Virus record (IMG/VR): IMGVR_UViG_3300033508_000321
DNA length: 64,000 nucleotides
DNA from: a virus
Direction: 5' to 3' (one strand)
Position 1 is the first letter of the stretch, and each line of letters begins with the position of its first letter. The position numbers were made by a program, and so were the translations under genes. The notes beneath the pieces are model-generated. The model saw nothing but the letters and a program-made list of their open reading frames with translations, did not search any database and was not told where the DNA came from. This document shows positions 38,625 through 49,827 of the stretch, one piece after another.

Positions 38625-39776
38625 ATGGAAAAACTAGTTTACGTAAAAAAAAGGGAGGGGAACTGGTATGTAGAACCAAATACCCTAATAAGTCAGCCTA
38701 GCGTTAGCAACATAAACCAATGGTATGACTTCGATATTTCAGGAAAGAGAATGATCCTCAGACCGCAGCATCCCGGTTACAATGATGGTGACATAATCGG
38801 CTTTAAATCCGCCGCTTTTTTTCCTGATGATGACTACGTAGGTGCAGGTGCAGAATGGACAGAGGTATGTATTTCCGGTGTATGGAAACACGAACCATAC
38901 TTCGAGAAATATCCATCGGCAAAACCAAAAATTCGTGAGTTGGATATCTTGAAAAAGAACATCGAACCGATGACAATAGAAGCAAGTGGATTTGCTATTG
39001 ATACCGATTTGTGGTACTACCTGCTACTACTGATGAAACAAGGTAAGCAGGTGCTACTAAGCGGTGCGAGCGGTAGCGGAAAAACGGAGCTACCGATGTA
39101 CTTAGTTAAACATTTGAACGGATTGAAAAACGTTAGCGCACGAAAACTTGATATCTTTGATATGGCAGTGAGTAACCCGGAGGCGAATTTCAAAGGTCAG
39201 ATGCATATGGTTAACGGTACAACCGAATTTGTATATAGCAGATTCGCAAAAAGGATTCAAGAACCTCACCAAGTGATAGTACTGGACGAGGTAAACCGTG
39301 GTGACTTGGACGTGCAAAATATGCTGATGCCGTTGTTCGATGGACGTAGAACTCTATTTGTAGAGCGTGGACATACCGAAGAGATAAAAGCACACCCCAC
39401 TACCGTTTTTTGGGCGACTGCCAATGTAGGTAACGAATTTGCGGGTACAAACATGATTGACTTAGCATTCCTGCAACGTTTTCATGTGGTAGAAGTGCCA
39501 TTTCCAAAACCAGAGGACGAAGTAAAAGTACTCGAGATGCGTACTAGGGTTGAACATGATTCGGCTGTAAAACTGGTAAAATTGGCGGGAAAAGTTCGTG
39601 AAAACCCTAGTATAAAACCAATATCCACACGCCAGTTAATTTTTACATCTGAGCTAGTCGTGGCAGGTTATCCAATAGTGAAAGCAATAGAACTTTCAAT
39701 CCTTACTCAGTACCCTACTGATGGGTTTTCAGGCGGTGACCGTGGAATAGTAAAAGCAGAAATTTTGAAGCTATGA
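38625..39776 (+). CDS. AAA+ ATPase (MoxR / CobS / NorQ-like, AAA_5 type)
   Basis: Walker A 'LLSGASGSGKTE'. Walker B 'VIVLDEVNRGDLDVQNMLMPLFDGRR'. Paired by an ATGA overlap with a vWA protein. Confidence 0.8.
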   Translation: MEKLVYVKKREGNWYVEPNTLISQPSVSNINQWYDFDISGKRMILRPQHPGYNDGDIIGFKSAAFFPDDDYVGAGAEWTEVCISGVWKHEPYFEKYPSAKPKIRELDILKKNIEPMTIEASGFAIDTDLWYYLLLLMKQGKQVLLSGASGSGKTELPMYLVKHLNGLKNVSARKLDIFDMAVSNPEANFKGQMHMVNGTTEFVYSRFAKRIQEPHQVIVLDEVNRGDLDVQNMLMPLFDGRRTLFVERGHTEEIKAHPTTVFWATANVGNEFAGTNMIDLAFLQRFHVVEVPFPKPEDEVKVLEMRTRVEHDSAVKLVKLAGKVRENPSIKPISTRQLIFTSELVVAGYPIVKAIELSILTQYPTDGFSGGDRGIVKAEILKL

Positions 39777-41446
39777 GAGTATTCGATGCATTAAAAACTG
39801 ACTGGCTTGGACGTGGTGAAAACTATGTGAAACGTGCAGAATTAACTTTTGATTTGTTAACGCTTGAACCTTATTCTACTTTCATGTACAAAATACCGGC
39901 GGGTGCAGTTAGTTTCGTACAACCGCTCACCACTAAATTTGTCAGCACGATAAAACCGGTGACGATAAAGTATAGCGATAAAGGTAGCAGCACTGATGGT
40001 AAGCAAATTATAATCAGCACCGAGCCAGAGGCTACTTTAGAACCACAGAAAGCGTTGGACGTGATGATCGGTCTGGGATGCCGTGAAGTAGCGCACATCA
40101 TGTATACAACATTTGAGGTGGAGAAAAATGAGGTTTTGCGAGCGATTATAAACATTGTAGAGGATGAACGTATAGAGGATCGAATGGTAACAGATTTGCC
40201 CGGCGTTTTTCCATTCTTACAGCGTGCAAAAGCGTTCTTTTTTGACAGAATACCCGATGCGCCTAAAAACGAATTACAAGAGATATTTTTGGCCTTTTTA
40301 CGCTTAGTACGTTACCCTGCTACACTACCCGAGGAATTAGCTGATAAGTATAATGATGTGCTGGAACAGATACTTGAAATCTTGACACCGTACCCGAGCA
40401 CGTTCGAAGAGGTAAAAATTGCATCGAAAAAAATATACGAACTGTTTCTACAATTCATGGACGAGCAAGAAGAACAGCAACAACGGAATGAGCAAGGCGA
40501 AAGTGAGGATGTGGAAGAGGGCGAAGGGCAAAGCAGTGGTGAGGAATCTACTGAGGAAAAAATGCTACGTATGCTGAAAAGTTTGGCGCAAGCATTAGAA
40601 CCAGAGGTAGAAGGTGAAAAGCCAGAGGATACTCGAATACTACCAACCGAGGGCACGTGTGATGTATTTTCGGTAAGGTGGCAAAAACCCGGCGGAATGA
40701 TAAAAGGTAAACCTGACTTAAGTAGCGTAGCAGCTATCCGCCGTGAATTTCTACCGATTGACTATACCAAGAAACACGTGCTACACAATAAAAATAGCGG
40801 TAGCTTAGATGATACTGAACTGGTACGAGGCTTTGCCGGTAGTAAGAACATCTACGAGGTAACATCATACGGAAAAGCCGATATTTTGAATCTTGTTCTT
40901 TTGGTGGATCAATCTGGTAGCATGGATGGTAGCCGAATAGAAATGGCAAGAAACGTAGCTATAATCGTGAGGGAAGCAACACGTGGATTTTCATTTATTC
41001 GCTTTTTTGCTTATGGTCATTCTACTGAGGATAGTGGTAGACCTACACCTACGGACTTAGATATTTTTTGCGAAAAGGGCGTGGATAAATTGGATTCGAT
41101 ACAAGCGAAAAATGCTTGCAATCGTGATGGTAGCGCAATCATGGAGGTTACTGCTCGAGTACAAGCATTAAGCCCCTACAAAACTGTTATTCTGATGATC
41201 AGCGATGGCCAACCGAATGCCTTAGTACCACACGGGTTTACGGATGAAAGTTTTATACGTCACGCAGTAAAATTTGCGGAAAAACGGAAAACCAAAATAG
41301 CACACATAAGCATGGTAGGTTTATCGTGGAAAAACGTATACGCATACGAGATGGATGCAAGCAGTAATTTTACCATGAAAATGGTACTGATGCTTAGACA
41401 GGTATTGAAAGATAATTTTGCTCAAAATGTGTTAACAAAACTTTAA
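39773..41446 (+). CDS. vWA-domain protein (CobT / NorD-like partner of the AAA+ ATPase)
   Basis: MIDAS 'LVLLVDQSGSMDG', with a later 'MISDGQPN'. An acidic low-complexity stretch 'EEQQQRNEQGESEDVEEGEGQSSGEESTEE' lies mid-protein. Confidence 0.75.
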   Translation: MRVFDALKTDWLGRGENYVKRAELTFDLLTLEPYSTFMYKIPAGAVSFVQPLTTKFVSTIKPVTIKYSDKGSSTDGKQIIISTEPEATLEPQKALDVMIGLGCREVAHIMYTTFEVEKNEVLRAIINIVEDERIEDRMVTDLPGVFPFLQRAKAFFFDRIPDAPKNELQEIFLAFLRLVRYPATLPEELADKYNDVLEQILEILTPYPSTFEEVKIASKKIYELFLQFMDEQEEQQQRNEQGESEDVEEGEGQSSGEESTEEKMLRMLKSLAQALEPEVEGEKPEDTRILPTEGTCDVFSVRWQKPGGMIKGKPDLSSVAAIRREFLPIDYTKKHVLHNKNSGSLDDTELVRGFAGSKNIYEVTSYGKADILNLVLLVDQSGSMDGSRIEMARNVAIIVREATRGFSFIRFFAYGHSTEDSGRPTPTDLDIFCEKGVDKLDSIQAKNACNRDGSAIMEVTARVQALSPYKTVILMISDGQPNALVPHGFTDESFIRHAVKFAEKRKTKIAHISMVGLSWKNVYAYEMDASSNFTMKMVLMLRQVLKDNFAQNVLTKL

Positions 41447-41504
41447 CAAGCGTACGGGTAAGTAACTAAGTGAAATACAACTATATTTACAAGAAATAAA
41501 CAAC

Positions 41505-42323
41505 ATGGCAAATCCATTGAAGGAAATAAAGAAAATGATAGATGACCCGATGCAAGCGGTTGTGTATGATTTGCCCTCAGGTACGAGGGATGAGTATAAA
41601 GACCGTTTGCGAGATTTTAAGGGTATGATTGACCAGTATTTAGATGGTCAGATACGTAGTAAACACATTGCTTTGGCCGCTTTTGAACTGGCATTCTGGC
41701 AATTTAAACGTAGCTACGGTGGTGGTTTTCACCCGAGTGAAGTAAGTAAAGGCGATTACTGCAAAAGAAAATTGTACTTCGAATACGTAGGTACAGAACC
41801 TGAAAAAAGTCGGAGTTTCAGTCAGCAAACTATGCGTATCTTTAATCTCGGTACTATGGTGCATTTGTATATGCAGTATGTACTGTTGAAAGAAAAAGTA
41901 ATTACCGATTTCGAAGTGCCGGTGGTGAGCAAAACCCTAGGAATAAACGGTAGTGCTGATGGTGAAAACACGGCGGAAGAGATAACGTTTGAAATAAAAA
42001 CGATGTCTTCATTCATCTTCGCAAAACTGGTTGAACCGGTAAAGGAACACGTCAGACAGGCAACAATGTACGCTTATCCTAGAGGTATGAAACGTATAAG
42101 ACTAATTTATGTGAATAAAGATTCGCTCGAGTTAAAAACGTTTTTAGTGCCCTTAGATATGGATTTCCTGAATCAATTTGCCGAGGTAGTATTCGAGTTA
42201 AAAACGCTGAAGAAAGAAAACGAAAAAAGCGGGGTGGAAACCCTACCTGAAAAACGCTGTAAAAATCGCATGGATAACCGAGCACTCGAATGTCCGTTTG
42301 CCAATAAATGTTTTGAAGCATGA
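41505..42323 (+). CDS. Cas4 / RecB-like PD-(D/E)xK exonuclease with Cys cluster
   Basis: 'GSADG', 'FEIKT' (ExK), 'QATMYAY' (QxxxY). One N-terminal Cys ('DYCKRK') and C-terminal 'CKNRMDNRALECPFANKC'. Confidence 0.7.
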   Translation: MANPLKEIKKMIDDPMQAVVYDLPSGTRDEYKDRLRDFKGMIDQYLDGQIRSKHIALAAFELAFWQFKRSYGGGFHPSEVSKGDYCKRKLYFEYVGTEPEKSRSFSQQTMRIFNLGTMVHLYMQYVLLKEKVITDFEVPVVSKTLGINGSADGENTAEEITFEIKTMSSFIFAKLVEPVKEHVRQATMYAYPRGMKRIRLIYVNKDSLELKTFLVPLDMDFLNQFAEVVFELKTLKKENEKSGVETLPEKRCKNRMDNRALECPFANKCFEA

Positions 42324-42823
42324 AAAAAGCGGTAAAATATCCATTTTTAGACGATATACCCGAGGATCTGGTATTAAAGATAGAACGCCTGTATAAAATA
42401 TATGCTAAGCTAGGTTTACAAGAGCAAAGCGATGTACCGGACACGCTAATGAATTACCCGAGCACGATTTCTTCACTCAGTACGTATGATGTTGCGGATT
42501 TACACGCAAATTATACAGCATGGTCAGGTTTTACAAGCGATAAATTCAAATACTTAATGGCTGCTACTTTGGTGTTAAAATCGGAACTCGAAAGCAAGAT
42601 AAACCAGAAAATAGCCATTACCACATACCCAAAAGGTGTGACCGCATTAGAGAAAAAAGCAAGGGCGGCAAATGGTACAAACGTTATTCAGTTAAAGGAA
42701 AAACTAGAGGAATTAGAAGCACTAGGCGAAATGATAAAAATTGAACGTGAAAGACTTGATATGCAGGTTATGGCATTACGTAGTGAACTAAGAAGAAGGG
42801 AAGCAGAATATGGGAACGCATAA
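42320..42823 (+). CDS. Hypothetical coiled-coil protein
   Basis: 167 aa. ATGA overlap. The C-terminal half is heptad-rich. Confidence 0.55.
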   Translation: MKKAVKYPFLDDIPEDLVLKIERLYKIYAKLGLQEQSDVPDTLMNYPSTISSLSTYDVADLHANYTAWSGFTSDKFKYLMAATLVLKSELESKINQKIAITTYPKGVTALEKKARAANGTNVIQLKEKLEELEALGEMIKIERERLDMQVMALRSELRRREAEYGNA

Positions 42824-43253
42824 AGGAACTTGGAAACATTTTGAACGTGAAGTAGCCGCTTACTTCGGATCTCACCGTGTACCGTTATCCGGGATGAGTA
42901 ATTACATTCAAAAAGGTGATGTATTGCATGAGTTTCTTCATGTAGAATGCAAGTACAGGGCACAGTGGCCGAAGTACGTACCCTTGGAATTTGCCGGGCG
43001 ACTTATCATAAATGGTGAGTATGTGATGTGGTGCAAACCGGTAGGTAAGAACGGTAAAAAAGGCGAAGAAATAGTAGCTGAAGCAATCTTGAGGGAGGGT
43101 ACATCACTGGAGGTATTATTTGCTTACACAGAAAAAGAAGCGGCGGAAAAAATTCCGGTGGTAGCGCTAAAGAAAAAAGGGCACGTAGGATTTGTGCTGA
43201 TGTGCAGAAAAGAACATTACGAAAAAGTAAAAAGTTATGTGGTACAAAATTAA
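42810..43253 (+). CDS. Small PD-(D/E)xK nuclease, Holliday-junction-resolvase-like
   Basis: 'FEREVAAYFG', 'PLSG', 'KGDVL' and 'VECKY' show the same E-SG-D-ExK layout as 36594-36923. Confidence 0.55.
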   Translation: MGTHKGTWKHFEREVAAYFGSHRVPLSGMSNYIQKGDVLHEFLHVECKYRAQWPKYVPLEFAGRLIINGEYVMWCKPVGKNGKKGEEIVAEAILREGTSLEVLFAYTEKEAAEKIPVVALKKKGHVGFVLMCRKEHYEKVKSYVVQN

Positions 43254-43626
43254 CAAAGAGAATTTAGAACCTACCATGCAGGTAGCACACCGACCAAAAA
43301 TAACACCGCTAGAGGTGTTCAGAAAATTGGCGGCAGAGGTAACAGACGATGCACTTATAACGTATTTAGAAGTGCTTAGGAAACGTTTCTACGTAGAAGA
43401 AAGAATACTTGTACACAATGTCGGTTTGCTCACACACATGGAAAAAAACAACGTGCTGAGCGAAGTTGTAAACCGTATTCAGCATCTAGGATTGAAGGGC
43501 GAAATAAAGCGGGAAAATGTGCTGGCGTTTCTTGCTTTGCTCAAATATCACTACTCAATAAACGTAGAAAATTTGGGTGGAAAAGATCGTTTAACAGTGT
43601 TAAATTACTTTTATGAGCGTAGCTAG
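43237..43626 (+). CDS. Hypothetical protein
   Basis: 129 aa. Overlaps both neighbours. Confidence 0.5.
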   Translation: MWYKINKENLEPTMQVAHRPKITPLEVFRKLAAEVTDDALITYLEVLRKRFYVEERILVHNVGLLTHMEKNNVLSEVVNRIQHLGLKGEIKRENVLAFLALLKYHYSINVENLGGKDRLTVLNYFYERS

Positions 43627-43912
43627 GGTAGAAAGCATAAAGCTATCAGAGGTAACACATGAGCGTGATTTCGTACTCAAAACGCTGGGTTTTGCTAATC
43701 GTCAGTGGGAAAGTAGTAGGCTGCAGCTTACTTTTGGCGAGGCACTGGGTGTTTTTCGGGCAGTTACTGAGCTAGGGTCGTTTGTTGGTATGTCAGCGCA
43801 CACGCCTCAGATGTTTATTTTTGTTGACGTGAACATAAAGAGTCACGCAGCAATGGACATGGTAGCCAATTTAGAGTACAGATGTAAAGTAAAAACGGCA
43901 AAAGATTTTTAA
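43613..43912 (+). CDS. Small paralogue family member 1 (C-terminal 'LEYRCKVK' motif)
   Basis: 99 aa. It has the shared C-terminal motif plus a 5-aa tail. Confidence 0.55.
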   Translation: MSVARVESIKLSEVTHERDFVLKTLGFANRQWESSRLQLTFGEALGVFRAVTELGSFVGMSAHTPQMFIFVDVNIKSHAAMDMVANLEYRCKVKTAKDF

Positions 43913-43916
43913 TGTT

Positions 43917-44213
43917 ATGAGTTTCCAAACCTACGCAGGTAAACAAGCAATGAAAGACATAGTTTTTTCTTTCGAGGACTTAGCTCGGAAGGTTACATGG
44001 GTAAAAGGGCAAGCACCAACAAATGCAGAATACGAAAAACGGGCGAAAATAAACGGGAAACTGACCATGTATAGAGATTGGGTAAAAGCACCTACAACAA
44101 TAGGTACGGTAGACTATATAAGTGATACCGGATGGCATTTCACAAACTCAGGTTTGGACGTAATTAGTTGGGATAAACTTGTAAACCTTGAGTACCTATG
44201 TCGAGTGAAGTAG
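43917..44213 (+). CDS. Small paralogue family member 2 ('LEYLCRVK*')
   Basis: 98 aa. It shares 'VFSFEDLARKVTW' with member 3. Confidence 0.55.
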   Translation: MSFQTYAGKQAMKDIVFSFEDLARKVTWVKGQAPTNAEYEKRAKINGKLTMYRDWVKAPTTIGTVDYISDTGWHFTNSGLDVISWDKLVNLEYLCRVK

Positions 44214-44470
44214 ATTGGATGTTAACATCAGCTAAAATGGTTTTTTCGGTGGATGATCTATACAAGAAAGTAAGCTATGCTGTAATGGTGAAAGGTACAG
44301 ATTTTAGAGAGATAATGAAAGAGGGTATAGCTGATAATTTCTGGCTGCTCAGAGGCGTTTTAAGCTGTGGTGTAGTTACGAAATTTAAAGTCGGTGAAAT
44401 ACATTACCCAAATACAGTTGTGAAGTTTGCCCAACTTAAATACATAGAATACCAATGCGAGATAAAATAA
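44198..44470 (+). CDS. Small paralogue family member 3 ('IEYQCEIK*')
   Basis: 90 aa. Its ATG is nested in the C-terminal motif codons of member 2. Confidence 0.55.
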   Translation: MSSEVDWMLTSAKMVFSVDDLYKKVSYAVMVKGTDFREIMKEGIADNFWLLRGVLSCGVVTKFKVGEIHYPNTVVKFAQLKYIEYQCEIK

Positions 44471-44688
44471 TATACGATGCCGATTCAGTTTACAGAATTT
44501 CCGGGAAAACGGTTCTTGACTTAGAAGATGGAAAAAGTAAACGGCGGGTGGGAAAACCTTATTTCTTGCAAGATTTAAGAATGTTCAAAACCATAAACAA
44601 AGAGATAAACATAAAAATGCCGGGAAGCGAGTATTTCGTGAAAAGAAAAGCGGCGGAAATAATGGAATTTATATGCGAAGTGAAATAA
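44455..44688 (+). CDS. Small paralogue family member 4 ('MEFICEVK*')
   Basis: 77 aa. Its ATG is nested in the C-terminal motif codons of member 3. Confidence 0.55.
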   Translation: MRDKIIYDADSVYRISGKTVLDLEDGKSKRRVGKPYFLQDLRMFKTINKEINIKMPGSEYFVKRKAAEIMEFICEVK

Positions 44689-45041
44689 CACTTGACCCAA
44701 ATAGTACTCTCAGCGATTACTATTCAATGTTTTGTGCTGACGCACAAATTACAAATAAGAAAAACACCATGAAAACAATGACTCGGACAGAAAAAAGAAA
44801 TACTTTATTACTTGCTAAAGTAACAGTAAGCCCACTAACGGTGGAATCAGAGAAAGCCTTTTTTAAAAGCCGGGTTAAAGAGCAGCATTTAGCTCTTATT
44901 GTGACTGATGATAACCTTTGGAAAGGATACCAGAGTTACAACGCTCTGATGAAAGAATCGGGTGATACCGATTACAAACACCTAACTTCTAAAGAAGTAT
45001 TAGTACTGAGGGAGGAAATAAAAAAGGAATTTAACTTATGA
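44673..45041 (+). CDS. Hypothetical protein
   Basis: 122 aa. Its ATG is nested in the C-terminal motif of member 4. Confidence 0.5.
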   Translation: MRSEITLDPNSTLSDYYSMFCADAQITNKKNTMKTMTRTEKRNTLLLAKVTVSPLTVESEKAFFKSRVKEQHLALIVTDDNLWKGYQSYNALMKESGDTDYKHLTSKEVLVLREEIKKEFNL

Positions 45042-45421
45042 TTGTTACCCTATTCCATGATTACGAAGTAGTAAAAAAGCTACGTACCTCAACACTTGTG
45101 CGCATCTTTTTTGACCGCAAAGGTAAGAATACTGATGTATTTTACCTATCCGCTAAACAACTGGATAAGCTGCATGCATCATACAGCAAAGTACAAAATT
45201 CAAGGGTAAAAGATACCCACGGGTTGGTTGTTATTGATGATGATAGATTTGTATGGTCTGGTGTTGAATTTCCTGATTATTCAGACCGTGAAAACCTTTG
45301 TAAGCATTTTTCTGGCGGTTTTTCATCTATTTACGAGAAAGTAGAAGTTACAAAGGAAACGCACACCCCCGAAGAAGTAAAACCCGTAGAAACAAAACCG
45401 AATGATGATCTTGTTAGATGA
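45038..45421 (+). CDS. Hypothetical protein
   Basis: 127 aa. ATGA overlap. Confidence 0.5.
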   Translation: MIVTLFHDYEVVKKLRTSTLVRIFFDRKGKNTDVFYLSAKQLDKLHASYSKVQNSRVKDTHGLVVIDDDRFVWSGVEFPDYSDRENLCKHFSGGFSSIYEKVEVTKETHTPEEVKPVETKPNDDLVR

Positions 45422-46598
45422 CCAGGCAAAAGCATTTGAAAAGCTAAAAACCCTTAAAGTAGGTGCACTTTTCATGTCACCGGGTGCGGGTAAAACCCTA
45501 ACAGCCTTTGAGCTTATTCATAGTGTAGAAGGTATTAACTACGTGTTATGGTTAACACCCTTTCAGACGAAAGAAAATTTGCGCAAAGAATTAACAGAGT
45601 ATGGTGGTTTTGACTTTGCCCATGATGTAGTGGGTATAGAAACACTTTCATCATCTGATGCTGTTTATCTGAAATTAAGTAAGAAGATACAAGAGCATAA
45701 CACATTTATAGTGTGTGATGAAAGCCTGAAAATAAAAAATTTGGCGGCAAAGCGTACCCAAAGAATCCTAGAACTGAGCAAATTTTGTGAGTACAAACTC
45801 ATATTGAATGGTACACCGCTAAGCAAGAATGTAATGGATTTATGGGCACAGTTACAATTCCTTAGCCCTAAAATACTAAATATGCCTTTGGCTCAGTACA
45901 AGAGTGTATTCGTGAAATACACCACCATCACGAAGAAAATAAACGGCTATAAAGTAACAAGGGAGTTTATCGATGGCTACGCCAATATTGATTACCTGTA
46001 CTCACTTATTAAACCCTACGTGTACGAGTGTGACCTTACAGTAAATGTAGAAAAACATTATGTAGAGTACATTTATGAGGTAGGTGAAGAAGCAAAAGAA
46101 GAGTATAACAGGTTAAAAAAGTTCATGTCTGAGCATGAATATTTGCTTTTCAGGAATAACAACGTATTCTTGGAACTGATACAAAACTTACAAATGGCTT
46201 ACTGTACAGTACCTGAAAAATTCGAACTCCTGGGGTGGGTGCTTACTCAGGTAGAACCAAAGAAAACCATTGTTTTTTGTAAATTTATACGTAGTGTTGA
46301 ATCCATTAGTAAGAAATTTCCATACCTTAAAGTACTGACCTACGGTAAACACGCATACGGGTTAAATTTGCAGGAATATAATACGGTTGTATTTTGGGAT
46401 AAAACCTTTGATTATGCGTTACGATTACAAGCCGAAAGGCGTATCTTTAGAACCGGGCAAACTGATATTTGTACGTATTATGACCTAACAGCTAGTACGG
46501 GTTTGGATAACATGATAAACGGAAATATAGAGCGGAAAGAATCCATGCTCAGTTACTTTAAGAAAATAGCATTTAAAACTTTTATTGAAAACTTATGA
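45402..46598 (+). CDS. SNF2-family helicase / ATPase
   Basis: Walker A 'SPGAGKTLTAFE'. 'VCDESLKIKN'. 'LNGTPLSKNVMDLWAQLQFLSP' (SNF2_N). Motif VI 'LQAERRIFRTGQT'. Confidence 0.8.
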   Translation: MMILLDDQAKAFEKLKTLKVGALFMSPGAGKTLTAFELIHSVEGINYVLWLTPFQTKENLRKELTEYGGFDFAHDVVGIETLSSSDAVYLKLSKKIQEHNTFIVCDESLKIKNLAAKRTQRILELSKFCEYKLILNGTPLSKNVMDLWAQLQFLSPKILNMPLAQYKSVFVKYTTITKKINGYKVTREFIDGYANIDYLYSLIKPYVYECDLTVNVEKHYVEYIYEVGEEAKEEYNRLKKFMSEHEYLLFRNNNVFLELIQNLQMAYCTVPEKFELLGWVLTQVEPKKTIVFCKFIRSVESISKKFPYLKVLTYGKHAYGLNLQEYNTVVFWDKTFDYALRLQAERRIFRTGQTDICTYYDLTASTGLDNMINGNIERKESMLSYFKKIAFKTFIENL

Positions 46599-47143
46599 AA
46601 AAAGCAGCGTTTAAAAGCCCTGTGTACAGTGTTGTAGCTGTACCGATTTATAAAATTGAGGCAAATAACTACAATCCAAACCACGTTGCAAAGCGTGAAA
46701 TGGACTTACTCTACCAAAGCATAAAATGTGATGGGTACACTATGCCTATTGTATGTTTCTATGATGATGAAAGGGATAAATACATTATCGTGGATGGTTT
46801 TCACCGTTATACGATTATGCTCAAATACAAAGATATTTTTGAGCGAGAAAATGGTATGTTACCGGTATCAGTTATTCACAAAGATCTAAGTGACCGAATG
46901 GCTTCAACAATTCGTCATAACAGGGCACGAGGTAAACATGAAGTGGAACTGCAAGCATCTTTAGTCGGGATGTTAAAATCTGGGTGGGATGAGCTAAAAA
47001 TAATGAAAGAGCTGGGCATGACCTTAGAAGAAGTACAACGTTTGATAGGTTTACGTGGTATAGCAAGTGAGATAAAAGGTGTACCTTATTCAATCGAACG
47101 CCAAATAATAGAAGCAGGGGAGGACGTTACTGATGAAGATTAA
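46595..47143 (+). CDS. ParB-like nuclease-domain protein (IbrB-like)
   Basis: 'NNYNPNHV', 'IIVDGFHRYTIM' and 'TIRHNRARGKH' fit the ParB/Srx-fold IbrB-type pattern as I recall it. Confidence 0.7.
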   Translation: MKKAAFKSPVYSVVAVPIYKIEANNYNPNHVAKREMDLLYQSIKCDGYTMPIVCFYDDERDKYIIVDGFHRYTIMLKYKDIFERENGMLPVSVIHKDLSDRMASTIRHNRARGKHEVELQASLVGMLKSGWDELKIMKELGMTLEEVQRLIGLRGIASEIKGVPYSIERQIIEAGEDVTDED

Positions 47144-47714
47144 ATTTATAGTAATGACCAGCGAGGATCCTAAAAGGATTGAAAATGTACAAAAAATGGA
47201 AATTCCGGACTTAGTAATTTACAGGGGTGATAACGATGACGTATTTCAAAAGTATCTTAATTGTTTTATCCTAGAATCTGAGTATGATGGCGTGCTAGTA
47301 CTTGAGGATGATGTACAACTTTGCTGGGATTTTTATACTAAAGTGTTAGGTATAATTCAAAAATATGCCAGTGATGTGATTAGCTTTTTTGAAAAGCCTA
47401 ATTCTAGACAGGTACTTGAAAAAGGTTTTAGGCCGGGGCGTGACTTTATGTTCAACCAGTGTAATTATTACCCTAAAGCTACATGTGAGTTATTTTTAGG
47501 TTCGGAAAACGTAGCTGAGTTTAAAAACTCATATTTCACTAAATACAAAGTTTGGGTAGCCCCGATCGATATTTACATAGCACACGTGCTAAGTAAATAC
47601 AAGTTAGAGTACCTTATGTACTTACCTTTTTTGGTGCAGCATTTACCCTTTAAATCTATTTTGGGTAACAGGTCTACCAAACGTCAAACCAAATTTTTTA
47701 TAGATGACCTATGA
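47133..47714 (+). CDS. Glycosyltransferase-like protein (GT25-like, tentative)
   Basis: 193 aa. 'IKFIVMTSEDPKRIENVQKM' and 'VLVLEDDVQLCWDF' resemble the GT25 N-terminus and EDD motif. Confidence 0.4.
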   Translation: MKIKFIVMTSEDPKRIENVQKMEIPDLVIYRGDNDDVFQKYLNCFILESEYDGVLVLEDDVQLCWDFYTKVLGIIQKYASDVISFFEKPNSRQVLEKGFRPGRDFMFNQCNYYPKATCELFLGSENVAEFKNSYFTKYKVWVAPIDIYIAHVLSKYKLEYLMYLPFLVQHLPFKSILGNRSTKRQTKFFIDDL

Positions 47715-48868
47715 AAAGAACTACAACGCTGGGCACGGAAAACGTGTTGGAATCTACACTAAAACGTATTGCTTACCTGTTTGATCACTATGATAATATT
47801 TCCTTATCATTCTCTGGTGGTAAAGATAGCACTGCTTTGTTTCATTTGGTGAATAACGAGGCTGTGAAACGTGATAGGAAATTTATTCTATACTTTCAAG
47901 ATCAGGAAGCAGAGTATCAGGGTACTATTGACCTAATGGAATGGGCTATGACTAGGCCAAACGTAATACCACTTTGGTATCAAGTACCGATTTTTATGAC
48001 CAATGCAGCTAGTCACCAACAACTATTTTTGTGGGCGTGGGGTGAGGGTGAAAAATGGGTGCGAGAAAAGCATCCGATGGCCATACAATCTATTGATGGA
48101 AAATATCCTAAGCGGTTTTATAAGTTTAACTTGTGGGTAGGTCAGCAACTAAGAAAATTGCCCGGAAATCATGTATCAATAATCGGATTAAGAGCCGAAG
48201 AAAGCCCTGATAGACGTTTTGTGATGTTTGGCGAAGACAGTGATTTGTTTTGGTTACGTAGAAAAACAGAGCCACATAAAGCATATCCTATTATTGATTG
48301 GGCATATACCGATGTGTGGAAGTACCTTATTGAAGGTAGTTACAGGTACAATAACGTGTATGATAAGATGTATATGCTAGGTGGTAATTTACGCCAATTC
48401 AGGGTTTCAAATTTGGTGCATGAAAAGGCATTCCGGTGTTTAACTGATTTGCAGGAATTAGAACCTGAAACGTATGATAAGTTAGAAGAACGTTTGCAGG
48501 GTGTACATACGGCAGCTATCTATGGCAAAGAAGCCTTGATTTATTCGATAAAAACCTTACCGGAAAGTTTTAAAACATGGAAAGAGTACAAGGATTTTCT
48601 ACTAAGTAGTATACACCCAGACCTGAGCAAATTGTTTCGTTATCAATGGTCACGTTTTGGTGATACGGACGATGTACGAGCTTGTAAATACATGGTAAAA
48701 CGTATTCTATTATGCGACTGGGAGGGTAACATCAAAGAACAGGATTGGATGAAATACTACCCTGAGTGGACTGTTAATAAATTCAACTACACCAAGGAAC
48801 AGATACTAGAAAAAAATAGGCAGAAACGTGAAGATCCAGTAATAAATAAATGGATGGCCAAGCTGTGA
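47711..48868 (+). CDS. PAPS reductase-family PP-loop protein (IbrA / DndC-like)
   Basis: PP-loop 'LSFSGGKDSTALFHL'. 'IIGLRAEESPDRR'. A long C-terminal extension follows. Confidence 0.75.
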   Translation: MKRTTTLGTENVLESTLKRIAYLFDHYDNISLSFSGGKDSTALFHLVNNEAVKRDRKFILYFQDQEAEYQGTIDLMEWAMTRPNVIPLWYQVPIFMTNAASHQQLFLWAWGEGEKWVREKHPMAIQSIDGKYPKRFYKFNLWVGQQLRKLPGNHVSIIGLRAEESPDRRFVMFGEDSDLFWLRRKTEPHKAYPIIDWAYTDVWKYLIEGSYRYNNVYDKMYMLGGNLRQFRVSNLVHEKAFRCLTDLQELEPETYDKLEERLQGVHTAAIYGKEALIYSIKTLPESFKTWKEYKDFLLSSIHPDLSKLFRYQWSRFGDTDDVRACKYMVKRILLCDWEGNIKEQDWMKYYPEWTVNKFNYTKEQILEKNRQKREDPVINKWMAKL

Positions 48869-48874
48869 AATGTT

Positions 48875-48906
48875 AAAACGCTGCTTAATTGCAGCGTTTT
48901 TTATTA
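48875..48906 (+). terminator. Rho-independent terminator
   Basis: AAAACGCTGC-ttaatt-GCAGCGTTTT followed by a T-rich run. Confidence 0.7.
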
Positions 48907-48926
48907 TTTTTGTTAAAATAAATGCA

Positions 48927-48934
48927 TAGATTTG
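48927..48934 (+). promoter_or_regulatory. TAnnTTTG box
   Basis: TAGATTTG, 17 nt upstream of ATG 48952. It lies inside the longer track ORF that starts at 48922. Confidence 0.45.
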
Positions 48935-48951
48935 TAAAAATTTTACATTTT

Positions 48952-49827
48952 ATGGACATAAACGAATTAAAAGAACTCATAAAACCCGCTTTTGCAAGCG
49001 TCGGTAAACTACCAAAAGAAGAGGCGAAGAACTACGGTAATTACAAATTGATGCCGGTAGAGATATTGGTGAAAGCGGGTTGGAATTACAAGCAAGAAAA
49101 CCCGTATACGAGTGATAAACTAAACGCTAATTTAAAGCGTAACGGGCAGGTAGAAAATATACAAGTACGATTACTTGATACAGGTTACTACGAGGTAGTA
49201 AATGGTAACCACCGCTTAGATGAAATCATAAAACTTGGGCGCAAAATGGTGGTGGTTTATGACCATGGAAAAGTAAGTTTAGCCGAGGCGAAGCGTATTG
49301 CCATTGAAACAAACGAAACGAAATTTAAAGCGGAAGAAACGCTTTTGGCGGAAGCAATCCGAGAACTCGAAGCAGAATTTGGCTTAGAAGACCTAGAGCA
49401 AACATTACCATTCTCGGATGAAGAAATGGAAAAAATGATGTCGGAAATGGATTCTGAGTTTGAGGAACCAACACAGGGTAATTATACACGCAAGATTGAA
49501 TCGCCTACCTATGAGCCAAAGAATGAAAAACCGCACACCATAGACTTGTACGACAAAAGCAAGTATGAGCAACTTTTAGAGGGTATAGAGGGTAGCTCAG
49601 CAGATCCAGAGGTTAAGATGTTTCTAAAAATTGCGGCGGCAAGGCACATAGTTTTTGACTATTCTAAGATAGCCGATTTTTATGCGCACAGCGATGCACA
49701 GGTACAACGTTTGATGGAGGATTCAGCACTCGTAATTATAGACTTTAATAGAGCTATTGAGCTAGGTTTTGTGCAGTTATCGGAGAATATAGCAAAACAA
49801 TACACAGAGGATTATGGAAAAGCCTAA
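48952..49827 (+). CDS. ParB-like nuclease-domain protein (second copy) with acidic linker and C-terminal domain
   Basis: 'YYEVVNGNHRLDEI' (DGxHR-type motif). I prefer ATG 48952 because the box at 48927 sits inside the alternative start at 48922. Confidence 0.65.
   Translation: MDINELKELIKPAFASVGKLPKEEAKNYGNYKLMPVEILVKAGWNYKQENPYTSDKLNANLKRNGQVENIQVRLLDTGYYEVVNGNHRLDEIIKLGRKMVVVYDHGKVSLAEAKRIAIETNETKFKAEETLLAEAIRELEAEFGLEDLEQTLPFSDEEMEKMMSEMDSEFEEPTQGNYTRKIESPTYEPKNEKPHTIDLYDKSKYEQLLEGIEGSSADPEVKMFLKIAAARHIVFDYSKIADFYAHSDAQVQRLMEDSALVIIDFNRAIELGFVQLSENIAKQYTEDYGKA

Follow-up and report, generated by a model that had tools for sequence, protein, structure and literature searches.

A stretch of 64,000 nucleotides (nt) from an uncultured virus (IMG/VR record IMGVR_UViG_3300033508_000321), referred to here as the window, contains four consecutive small genes, m1 to m4, whose proteins share a short C-terminal tail with the motif [LIM]E[YF]xC[KRE][VI]K, and in three of them the start codon of the following gene is nested within the codons of that tail. 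The reading preferred here, to which a little better than an even chance is given, is that these are lineage-restricted genes for small proteins in a translationally coupled chain, with a common C-terminal handle, of which m2 and m3 are tandem duplicates. The four open reading frames (ORFs), the three junctions, and m5, the gene that receives the last junction, are positioned as follows.

43613-43912, plus strand: m1, 99 amino acids (aa); tail LEYRCKVK at 43871-43894, five codons ahead of the stop
43917-44213, plus strand: m2, 98 aa; start 4 nt past the m1 stop; tail LEYLCRVK at 44187-44210
44198-44470, plus strand: m3, 90 aa; tail IEYQCEIK at 44444-44467
44455-44688, plus strand: m4, 77 aa; tail MEFICEVK at 44662-44685
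44198-44213, plus strand: junction 1, overlap of 16 nt; m3 ATG within the Cys codon region of the m2 tail
44455-44470, plus strand: junction 2, overlap of 16 nt; m4 ATG within the m3 tail
44673-44688, plus strand: junction 3, overlap of 16 nt; m5 ATG within the m4 tail
44673-45041, plus strand: m5, 122 aa; without the tail motif

In m2, m3 and m4 the motif forms the exact C-terminus; the A that closes the codon ahead of the Cys and the TG of the Cys codon itself together make up the next ATG, which lies 13 nt before the stop. In m1 the motif is internal, LEYRCKVK being followed by TAKDF, and the relic of a nested ATG stands at 43882 with TAA directly after it. A preliminary description of this region had listed the four ORFs, their lengths and a motif in each, and its positions and strings were confirmed, as were the three junction sequences that it quoted, which match exactly. 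Its view that the m1 junction has decayed also holds, since an ATG directly before TAA is non-functional. The span that it gave for the array, 43613-44702, begins correctly and overshoots the m4 stop by 14 nt.

A search of the six-frame translation of the window with the motif returned four matches, all in m1 to m4, and the DNA pattern of the junction returned three against 0.07 expected, but both patterns were written from these very sites and their counts are post hoc. An unbiased comparison of the C-terminal octamers of 97 plus-strand ORFs places the pairs among m2, m3 and m4 as the top three of 4656, with scores of 28-30; the next-best pair scores 18, and the mean is -6.7 with a standard deviation of 6.3. 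Elsewhere in the window there are 11 other overlaps of 10-20 nt, none of which carries the tail motif. The m1 to m4 proteins are neutral to basic, the Cys of the tail is the sole Cys in m1, m2 and m4, and a purine-rich GAR lies 8-10 nt ahead of each nested ATG. The ORF m0 was considered as a fifth member and rejected, given that its overlap with m1 is 14 nt long and in another register and that it has no similarity to the others.

The relationship between m2 and m3 extends beyond the tail: in an alignment that includes their allelic variants they match along their whole length, with 27-31% identity and 21 invariant columns, and the z-score of their local alignment, 5.4 for the complete proteins, is 3.4 (p 0.009) once the tail is cut off. 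A block that the preliminary description had reported as common to both is present, as VFSFEDLARKV in m2 (43962-43994) and VFSVDDLYKKV in m3 (44240-44272). As judged from these alignments m2 and m3 are tandem paralogues, and the duplicated unit took in the tail and the nested-start junction. In both m2 and m3 the coding sequence of the VFS block is GTTTTTTC, within which a U-rich heptamer resembles a slippery site (43963-43969 and 44241-44247); it is most simply a by-product of the Val-Phe-Ser codons.

For m1 and m4 the picture is different. Every pair involving either falls to chance level once the tail is removed (trimmed z-scores -0.5 to 0.9), hhalign of the m2/m3 alignment against m1 or m4 aligns the last 14 residues only, and a tail-less m2/m3 hidden Markov model (HMM) scores the bodies of m1 and m4 no better than shuffles. 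These bodies look unrelated to m2/m3 and to each other, with a C-terminal segment of 14 residues as the only common part. The earlier proposal of four paralogues, with a duplication unit that carries its own coupling signal, is upheld for m2 and m3 and is not supported for all four members. It is nevertheless possible, if doubtful, that all four are serial tandem duplicates, the bodies of m1 and m4 having diverged past recognition while the tail was held in place by two reading frames and a start signal. The genes adjoin, are similar in size and have an identical order of features; the m2/m3 pair is proof of duplication at this locus; a second, weak paralogue pair, m5/m6, lies close by; and MAFFT sets the m4 segment KIIYDADSVYR beneath the VFS block of m2 and m3. 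However, outside the tail m1 and m4 give no statistical signal, the order of secondary-structure elements differs between m2 and m4 in low-confidence models, and m1 has no second frame, so that the double constraint on which this explanation depends fails there.

A natural variant of the array allows selection on it to be assessed. The metagenome contig L009, of 6212 nt, corresponds to positions 38721-44932 of the window and differs from it at 63 of 6212 positions; only 2 of these fall in the 5658 nt outside a single patch, within which the divergence is 11%.

44135-44688, plus strand: mosaic (allelic) patch of 554 nt; covers m3 and m4 completely as well as the end of m2, with 61 of the 63 L009 differences

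The boundary of the patch is sharp, in that its downstream limit coincides exactly with the final base of the m4 stop, and a compensated micro-indel lies within it at 44157-44159. Between window and L009 the ratio of non-synonymous to synonymous substitution rates (dN/dS) reaches about 0.2 in the part of m2 that the patch covers, lies at 0.14-0.17 in m3 (dS about 0.5) and is lowest in m4, at 0.04-0.08, and third positions account for 24 of 39 differences in m3 and 10 of 13 in m4. With dN/dS at 0.04-0.2 across the patch and third positions dominant, the genes that it covers are real and subject to purifying selection. The preliminary description had called the family rapidly diverging; taken to mean positive selection, this is contradicted by the same values. 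Both alleles are found among the Logan contigs of run X2, where a variant contig (31 differences) has a depth of 3.1, a contig identical to the window a depth of 3.7, and the single contig upstream a depth of 6.97. One mat sample thus holds two old alleles of the cassette on a near-identical backbone. The patch fits either recombination import from a diverged lineage or a maintained polymorphism, and the contig data do not distinguish the two. The target of a diversity-generating retroelement was considered and rejected: the substitution spectrum is mixed, third positions dominate, dN/dS is at most 0.2, and no repeat of the patch occurs within 43200-45500.

The two alleles bear directly on whether the tail is conserved as protein or as nucleotide sequence. 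In L009 the tail residues E, Y, C, [VI] and K are unchanged and the x positions vary, as in IEYQCEIK to IEYLCKIK; the tail codons of m2 show synonymous changes only. The three overlaps contain five L009 substitutions, of which, in the upstream frame, four are silent and the fifth affects the variable [KRE] position, whereas all five alter the N-terminus of the downstream protein. At junction 1 both substitutions are silent in m2 and change m3, and the ATG is kept. Across the four copies, moreover, the conserved residues of the tail use varied synonymous codons (GAG/GAA, TGT/TGC, AAA/AAG), and m1 retains its tail though the nested frame closes at once. Because what the overlap substitutions alter is the N-terminus of the downstream protein, with the upstream tail spared, the tail is, by this comparison, selected as protein. 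The preliminary description had allowed for a similarity that is limited to the junction and due purely to translational coupling; at the level of sequence the similarity is so limited for two of the four members, but the coupling constraint alone is insufficient to explain it, given that the tail is kept as protein.

A motif that acts as a coupling or initiation signal in the nucleotides, with the amino-acid likeness as its by-product, would account for the uniform overlap of 16 nt in three of three junctions, for the purine-rich GAR before each ATG and for the xxA-TGY that a nested ATG forces. It is very unlikely, given that synonymous sites vary freely among copies and alleles while the residues are kept, that the genome makes no use of Shine-Dalgarno sequences, that the 11 other overlaps of 10-20 nt do without the motif, and that m1 holds the motif without a downstream frame.

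The nested starts of m3 and m4 look real. All three nested ATGs are kept in L009, and in m4 the next in-frame start comes no earlier than codon 32. In m3 all four L009 differences in codons 8-13 fall at third positions (chance without coding constraint, about 0.012), and the intermediate ATG (M8) is lost in L009; because these codons vary only at third positions and M8 is lost, the nested ATG is the likely start of m3. The start of m5 is less certain, as an alternative in-frame ATG stands at 44727. Given that the first-ATG rule inflates overlap counts across the window, the overlaps of 16 nt could instead be an artefact of that rule, with the true starts downstream, at M14 in m3 and at M19 in m5. 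The gene caller applied to L009 did begin m3 at M14, and the alleles encode different residues at 4 of the first 13 codons of m3. This is quite unlikely for three reasons: first, m4 offers no alternative start for 31 codons; second, the third-position pattern in m3 codons 8-13 and the absence of the intermediate ATG from L009 indicate translation from the nested start; and third, that start makes the N-terminal part of m3 equal in length to that of m2.

A mechanism can be proposed on this basis. m2 and m3 arose by tandem duplication, and m1 and m4 carry the same C-terminal segment of 14 residues on other bodies. The tail is most likely a common handle, by which different small bodies would contact one partner or each other, and a ribosome finishing one gene would most likely be handed back to the start of the next by termination-reinitiation. 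Through such coupling m2, m3, m4 and m5 would be translated as a single unit; no Shine-Dalgarno sequence was found upstream of any of the 69 gene starts tested in the window. Coupling is consistent with the three same-strand overlaps between stop and start regions, with ATGs conserved in the second allele, and with a junction RNA that is no more structured than shuffles (z 0.1 to 1.1), which is compatible with an accessible start. Pairs of genes that overlap have been found to encode subunits of the same complex more often than other pairs (PMC10666635). As a best guess, the proteins may act in early or middle host takeover, or may support the putative nuclease and SNF2 modification genes that flank them.

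Other signals at the junctions were considered and rejected. RNA structure shows nothing beyond shuffles. A fusion by programmed -1 frameshifting is not supported, as both frames are open together for only 22-31 nt at m2/m3 and m3/m4, and no slippery heptamer was seen there. Nor are the leaders of nested starts shown to be poorer in A than those of free-standing starts, the A fraction being 0.44 against 0.45 (p = 0.77). A more elaborate possibility is that the tail and nested start form a portable junction cassette, with unrelated genes (m1, the m2/m3 ancestor and m4) each having been captured ahead of one of its copies, which would have given each a docking or modification handle, with its lone Cys at -4, and automatic coupling; the handle would serve a common partner in the operon or the host, and selection would keep the divergent alleles. 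This is highly improbable.

Several points weigh against a coupled chain with a common handle. The handle is itself inferred, and its Cys is inseparable from the need for an ATG, since A-TG-Y forces Cys or Trp, with the m1 relic as the sole exception. A prediction of a four-chain complex with ESMFold2 gave a score of 0.00, with all chains at a predicted local distance difference test (pLDDT) of about 26, and offers no support for the handle; it is also too low to contradict it. The individual models, with AF2 pLDDT of 49.6 for m2 and 42.8 for m4, have too little confidence for a fold search, and the ESM Atlas models of m1, m2 and m4, at pLDDT 0.38-0.41, are too low to give a fold. Searches of the Atlas with these three proteins found no reliable neighbour, and a feature score of 0.95 for m4 pointed to unnamed clusters. 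Termination-reinitiation has been demonstrated to be efficient for overlaps of -8 to +10 nt, and overlaps beyond this are uncommon (PMC10666635); a back-step of 16 nt is plausible, and it falls outside that range. The coat-lysis overlap of phage fr is 34 nt (cited in PMC10666635). Lastly, an internal promoter within m1 may feed m2 onwards, through TAnnTTTG boxes at 43729 and 43816.

The distribution of the family was examined at several levels. Scans of m0 to m6 against Pfam and PHROGs gave nothing below E = 0.005. Among 50,697 phage records there was no match to the DNA of the region by blastn and none to m1 or m4 by tblastn, m1 having had no search of a large database. When 5.8 billion clusters were searched by word index with m2, m3 and m4, only their own clusters and the L009 allele came back, an exhaustive HMM search of 1.84 billion representatives with the m2/m3 profile returned its own members only, and of 93 pattern matches in an IMG/VR scan with the m2/m3 alignment none was confirmed. 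A scan of IMG/VR DNA for the m3-type junction gave at least 80 single matches; L066, the only one among the matches listed that has ORFs on both sides, proved to be a pair of head-tail connector genes and was set aside as a chance match. Relatives identified through the SNF2 neighbour (8 IMG/VR and 3 metagenome loci, 40-50% identity) carry neither array nor motif in any of the 11 loci. Because the members searched have no homologue and the nearest SNF2-linked phages are without the array, the family appears to be restricted to this phage lineage, m1 having been searched less.

The preliminary description had read the array as a host-interaction or anti-defence arsenal, and the allelic patch could be taken as the outcome of balancing or frequency-dependent selection in an arms race. 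The concentration of nearly all differences from a near-clonal relative (61 of 63) in the end of m2, m3 and m4, the presence of both alleles in one sample, where the upstream depth of 6.97 splits into 3.1 and 3.7, and the ORFan nature of the genes, which are absent from relatives at 45-50% SNF2 identity, are all in keeping with this. It is, however, unlikely. At 0.04-0.2, dN/dS shows no excess of replacements; the proteins have no PHROGs or Pfam match and, being neutral to basic, are not acidic DNA mimics; and neutral import by recombination from a diverged lineage explains the patch equally well. No homology to known defence inhibitors was found in Pfam or PHROGs, for m2 to m4 in the 5.8 billion clusters, or with the m2/m3 profile in the 1.84 billion representatives.

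The array lies midway along a long operon for DNA metabolism in an uncultured microbial-mat phage. Microbial-mat metagenomes contain the DNA of the window, the plus strand of which holds all of its long ORFs, and the G+C fraction is about 0.40. Sequencing runs of the mat that carry the locus date from 2014 to 2023. Upstream neighbours of the array are an AAA_5/CbbQ-type ATPase and three further proteins, which have no Pfam match; downstream follow, in order, m5, m6, an SNF2-related protein, a weak ParB_N match, an unassigned protein and a PAPS_reduct/DUF3440 protein. The enclosing unit is inferred to be as follows.

41413-48900, plus strand: putative transcription unit; TAnnTTTG box at 41413-41420, 14 genes, terminator-like hairpin at 48875-48900

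The 14 genes between 41505 and 48868 form a chain of overlaps of 4-20 nt, with successive spacings of -4, -14, -17, -14, (+4), -16, -16, -16, -4, -20, -4, -11 and -4 nt, and the +4 spacer between m1 and m2 is its sole break. The box at 41413, ahead of the gene at 41505, would be the promoter, and the hairpin at 48875-48900 is strong and terminator-like; no plus-strand terminator was found inside the array. In a scan of 41000-49500 for sites of the sigma-70 type, promoter-like sites were rarer than in shuffles. The TAnnTTTG box occurs 98 times genome-wide against 81.5 expected, which is near chance, and two plus-strand copies lie within m1, at 43729-43736 and 43816-43823. Of the 57 overlaps in the window as a whole, about 22 measure 10 nt or more, which is unusually many, and the first-ATG calling rule may account for part of this.

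Downstream of the array, m6 (45038-45421) overlaps the start of the SNF2 gene at 45402-45421, and the nearest SNF2-linked phages keep an m6-like gene directly before SNF2. In the relatives L002, L005, L008 and L011 (43-50% SNF2 identity) the gene just upstream of SNF2 encodes 108-127 aa; these upstream genes end in a similar acidic tail in the relatives (..DDLVR, ..DELKR, ..DDLRDE, ..ESLTR), and an overlap of 20 nt with the SNF2 start is retained in four of those relatives' loci. The identity between m6 and the L004 gene is 24.5% over 106 aa. The m6-type gene looks like a conserved partner gene of SNF2 with a conserved long overlap. Between m5 (122 aa) and m6 (127 aa) there is a weak similarity (local z 3.6-3.8; 39% identity over 23 aa), and the two may represent a second tandem duplicate pair (44673-45421) that adjoins the array.

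If the coupled chain with a common handle is correct, one short tail serves two ends, as a conserved feature on different small proteins and as the start of the next gene, and the locus could show how far back a terminating ribosome restarts where the host makes no use of Shine-Dalgarno sequences. The allele pair separates a need of the protein for the motif from a need of the start for a particular word at all motif residues but the Cys. As the family is tiny and confined to a single uncultured phage lineage, the general importance of the locus is limited for now.

Among known systems, tandem arrays of small ORFan paralogues, such as the host-takeover module of SPO1 and the arrays of jumbo coliphages, resemble m1 to m4 in their adjacent, overlapping small genes on one strand, in a short common terminal motif, in at least one recent duplication and in their restriction to one lineage. 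They differ in that here there are only four genes, two of them provably related, which lie in mid-operon between putative nuclease genes and an SNF2/ParB/PAPS-reductase-like module and not by a genome end, and no sequence relationship was found between m1 to m4 and these array families. The tail also recalls the CaaX prenylation box of eukaryotes, in which a Cys at -4 from the C-terminus is followed by two aliphatic residues and X: m2, m3 and m4 end in C-x-[VI]-K, with the Cys at -4 and an aliphatic residue at -2. A CaaX box was rejected given that the tails CRVK, CEIK and CEVK have a charged first aliphatic position and a final Lys, that the m1 motif is internal, and that the genome is of phage type in its organization and without Shine-Dalgarno sequences. 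The virus also resembles a tailed bacteriophage, whose host is not known to have a prenyltransferase of the CaaX kind.

With characterized termination-reinitiation pairs (Huber et al. 2019, PMC6728339; Huber et al. 2023, PMC10666635), and with phage fr, the junctions share a same-strand overlap of stop and start, the lack of a Shine-Dalgarno sequence and a start inside the upstream coding sequence; in contrast to those pairs, the overlaps here are 16 nt long, beyond -8 to +10, occur three in a row at identical length and lie in a tail that is conserved as protein. Small coupled ORFan genes with local duplication are a common theme among phages, of which the array is a new variant restricted to one lineage.

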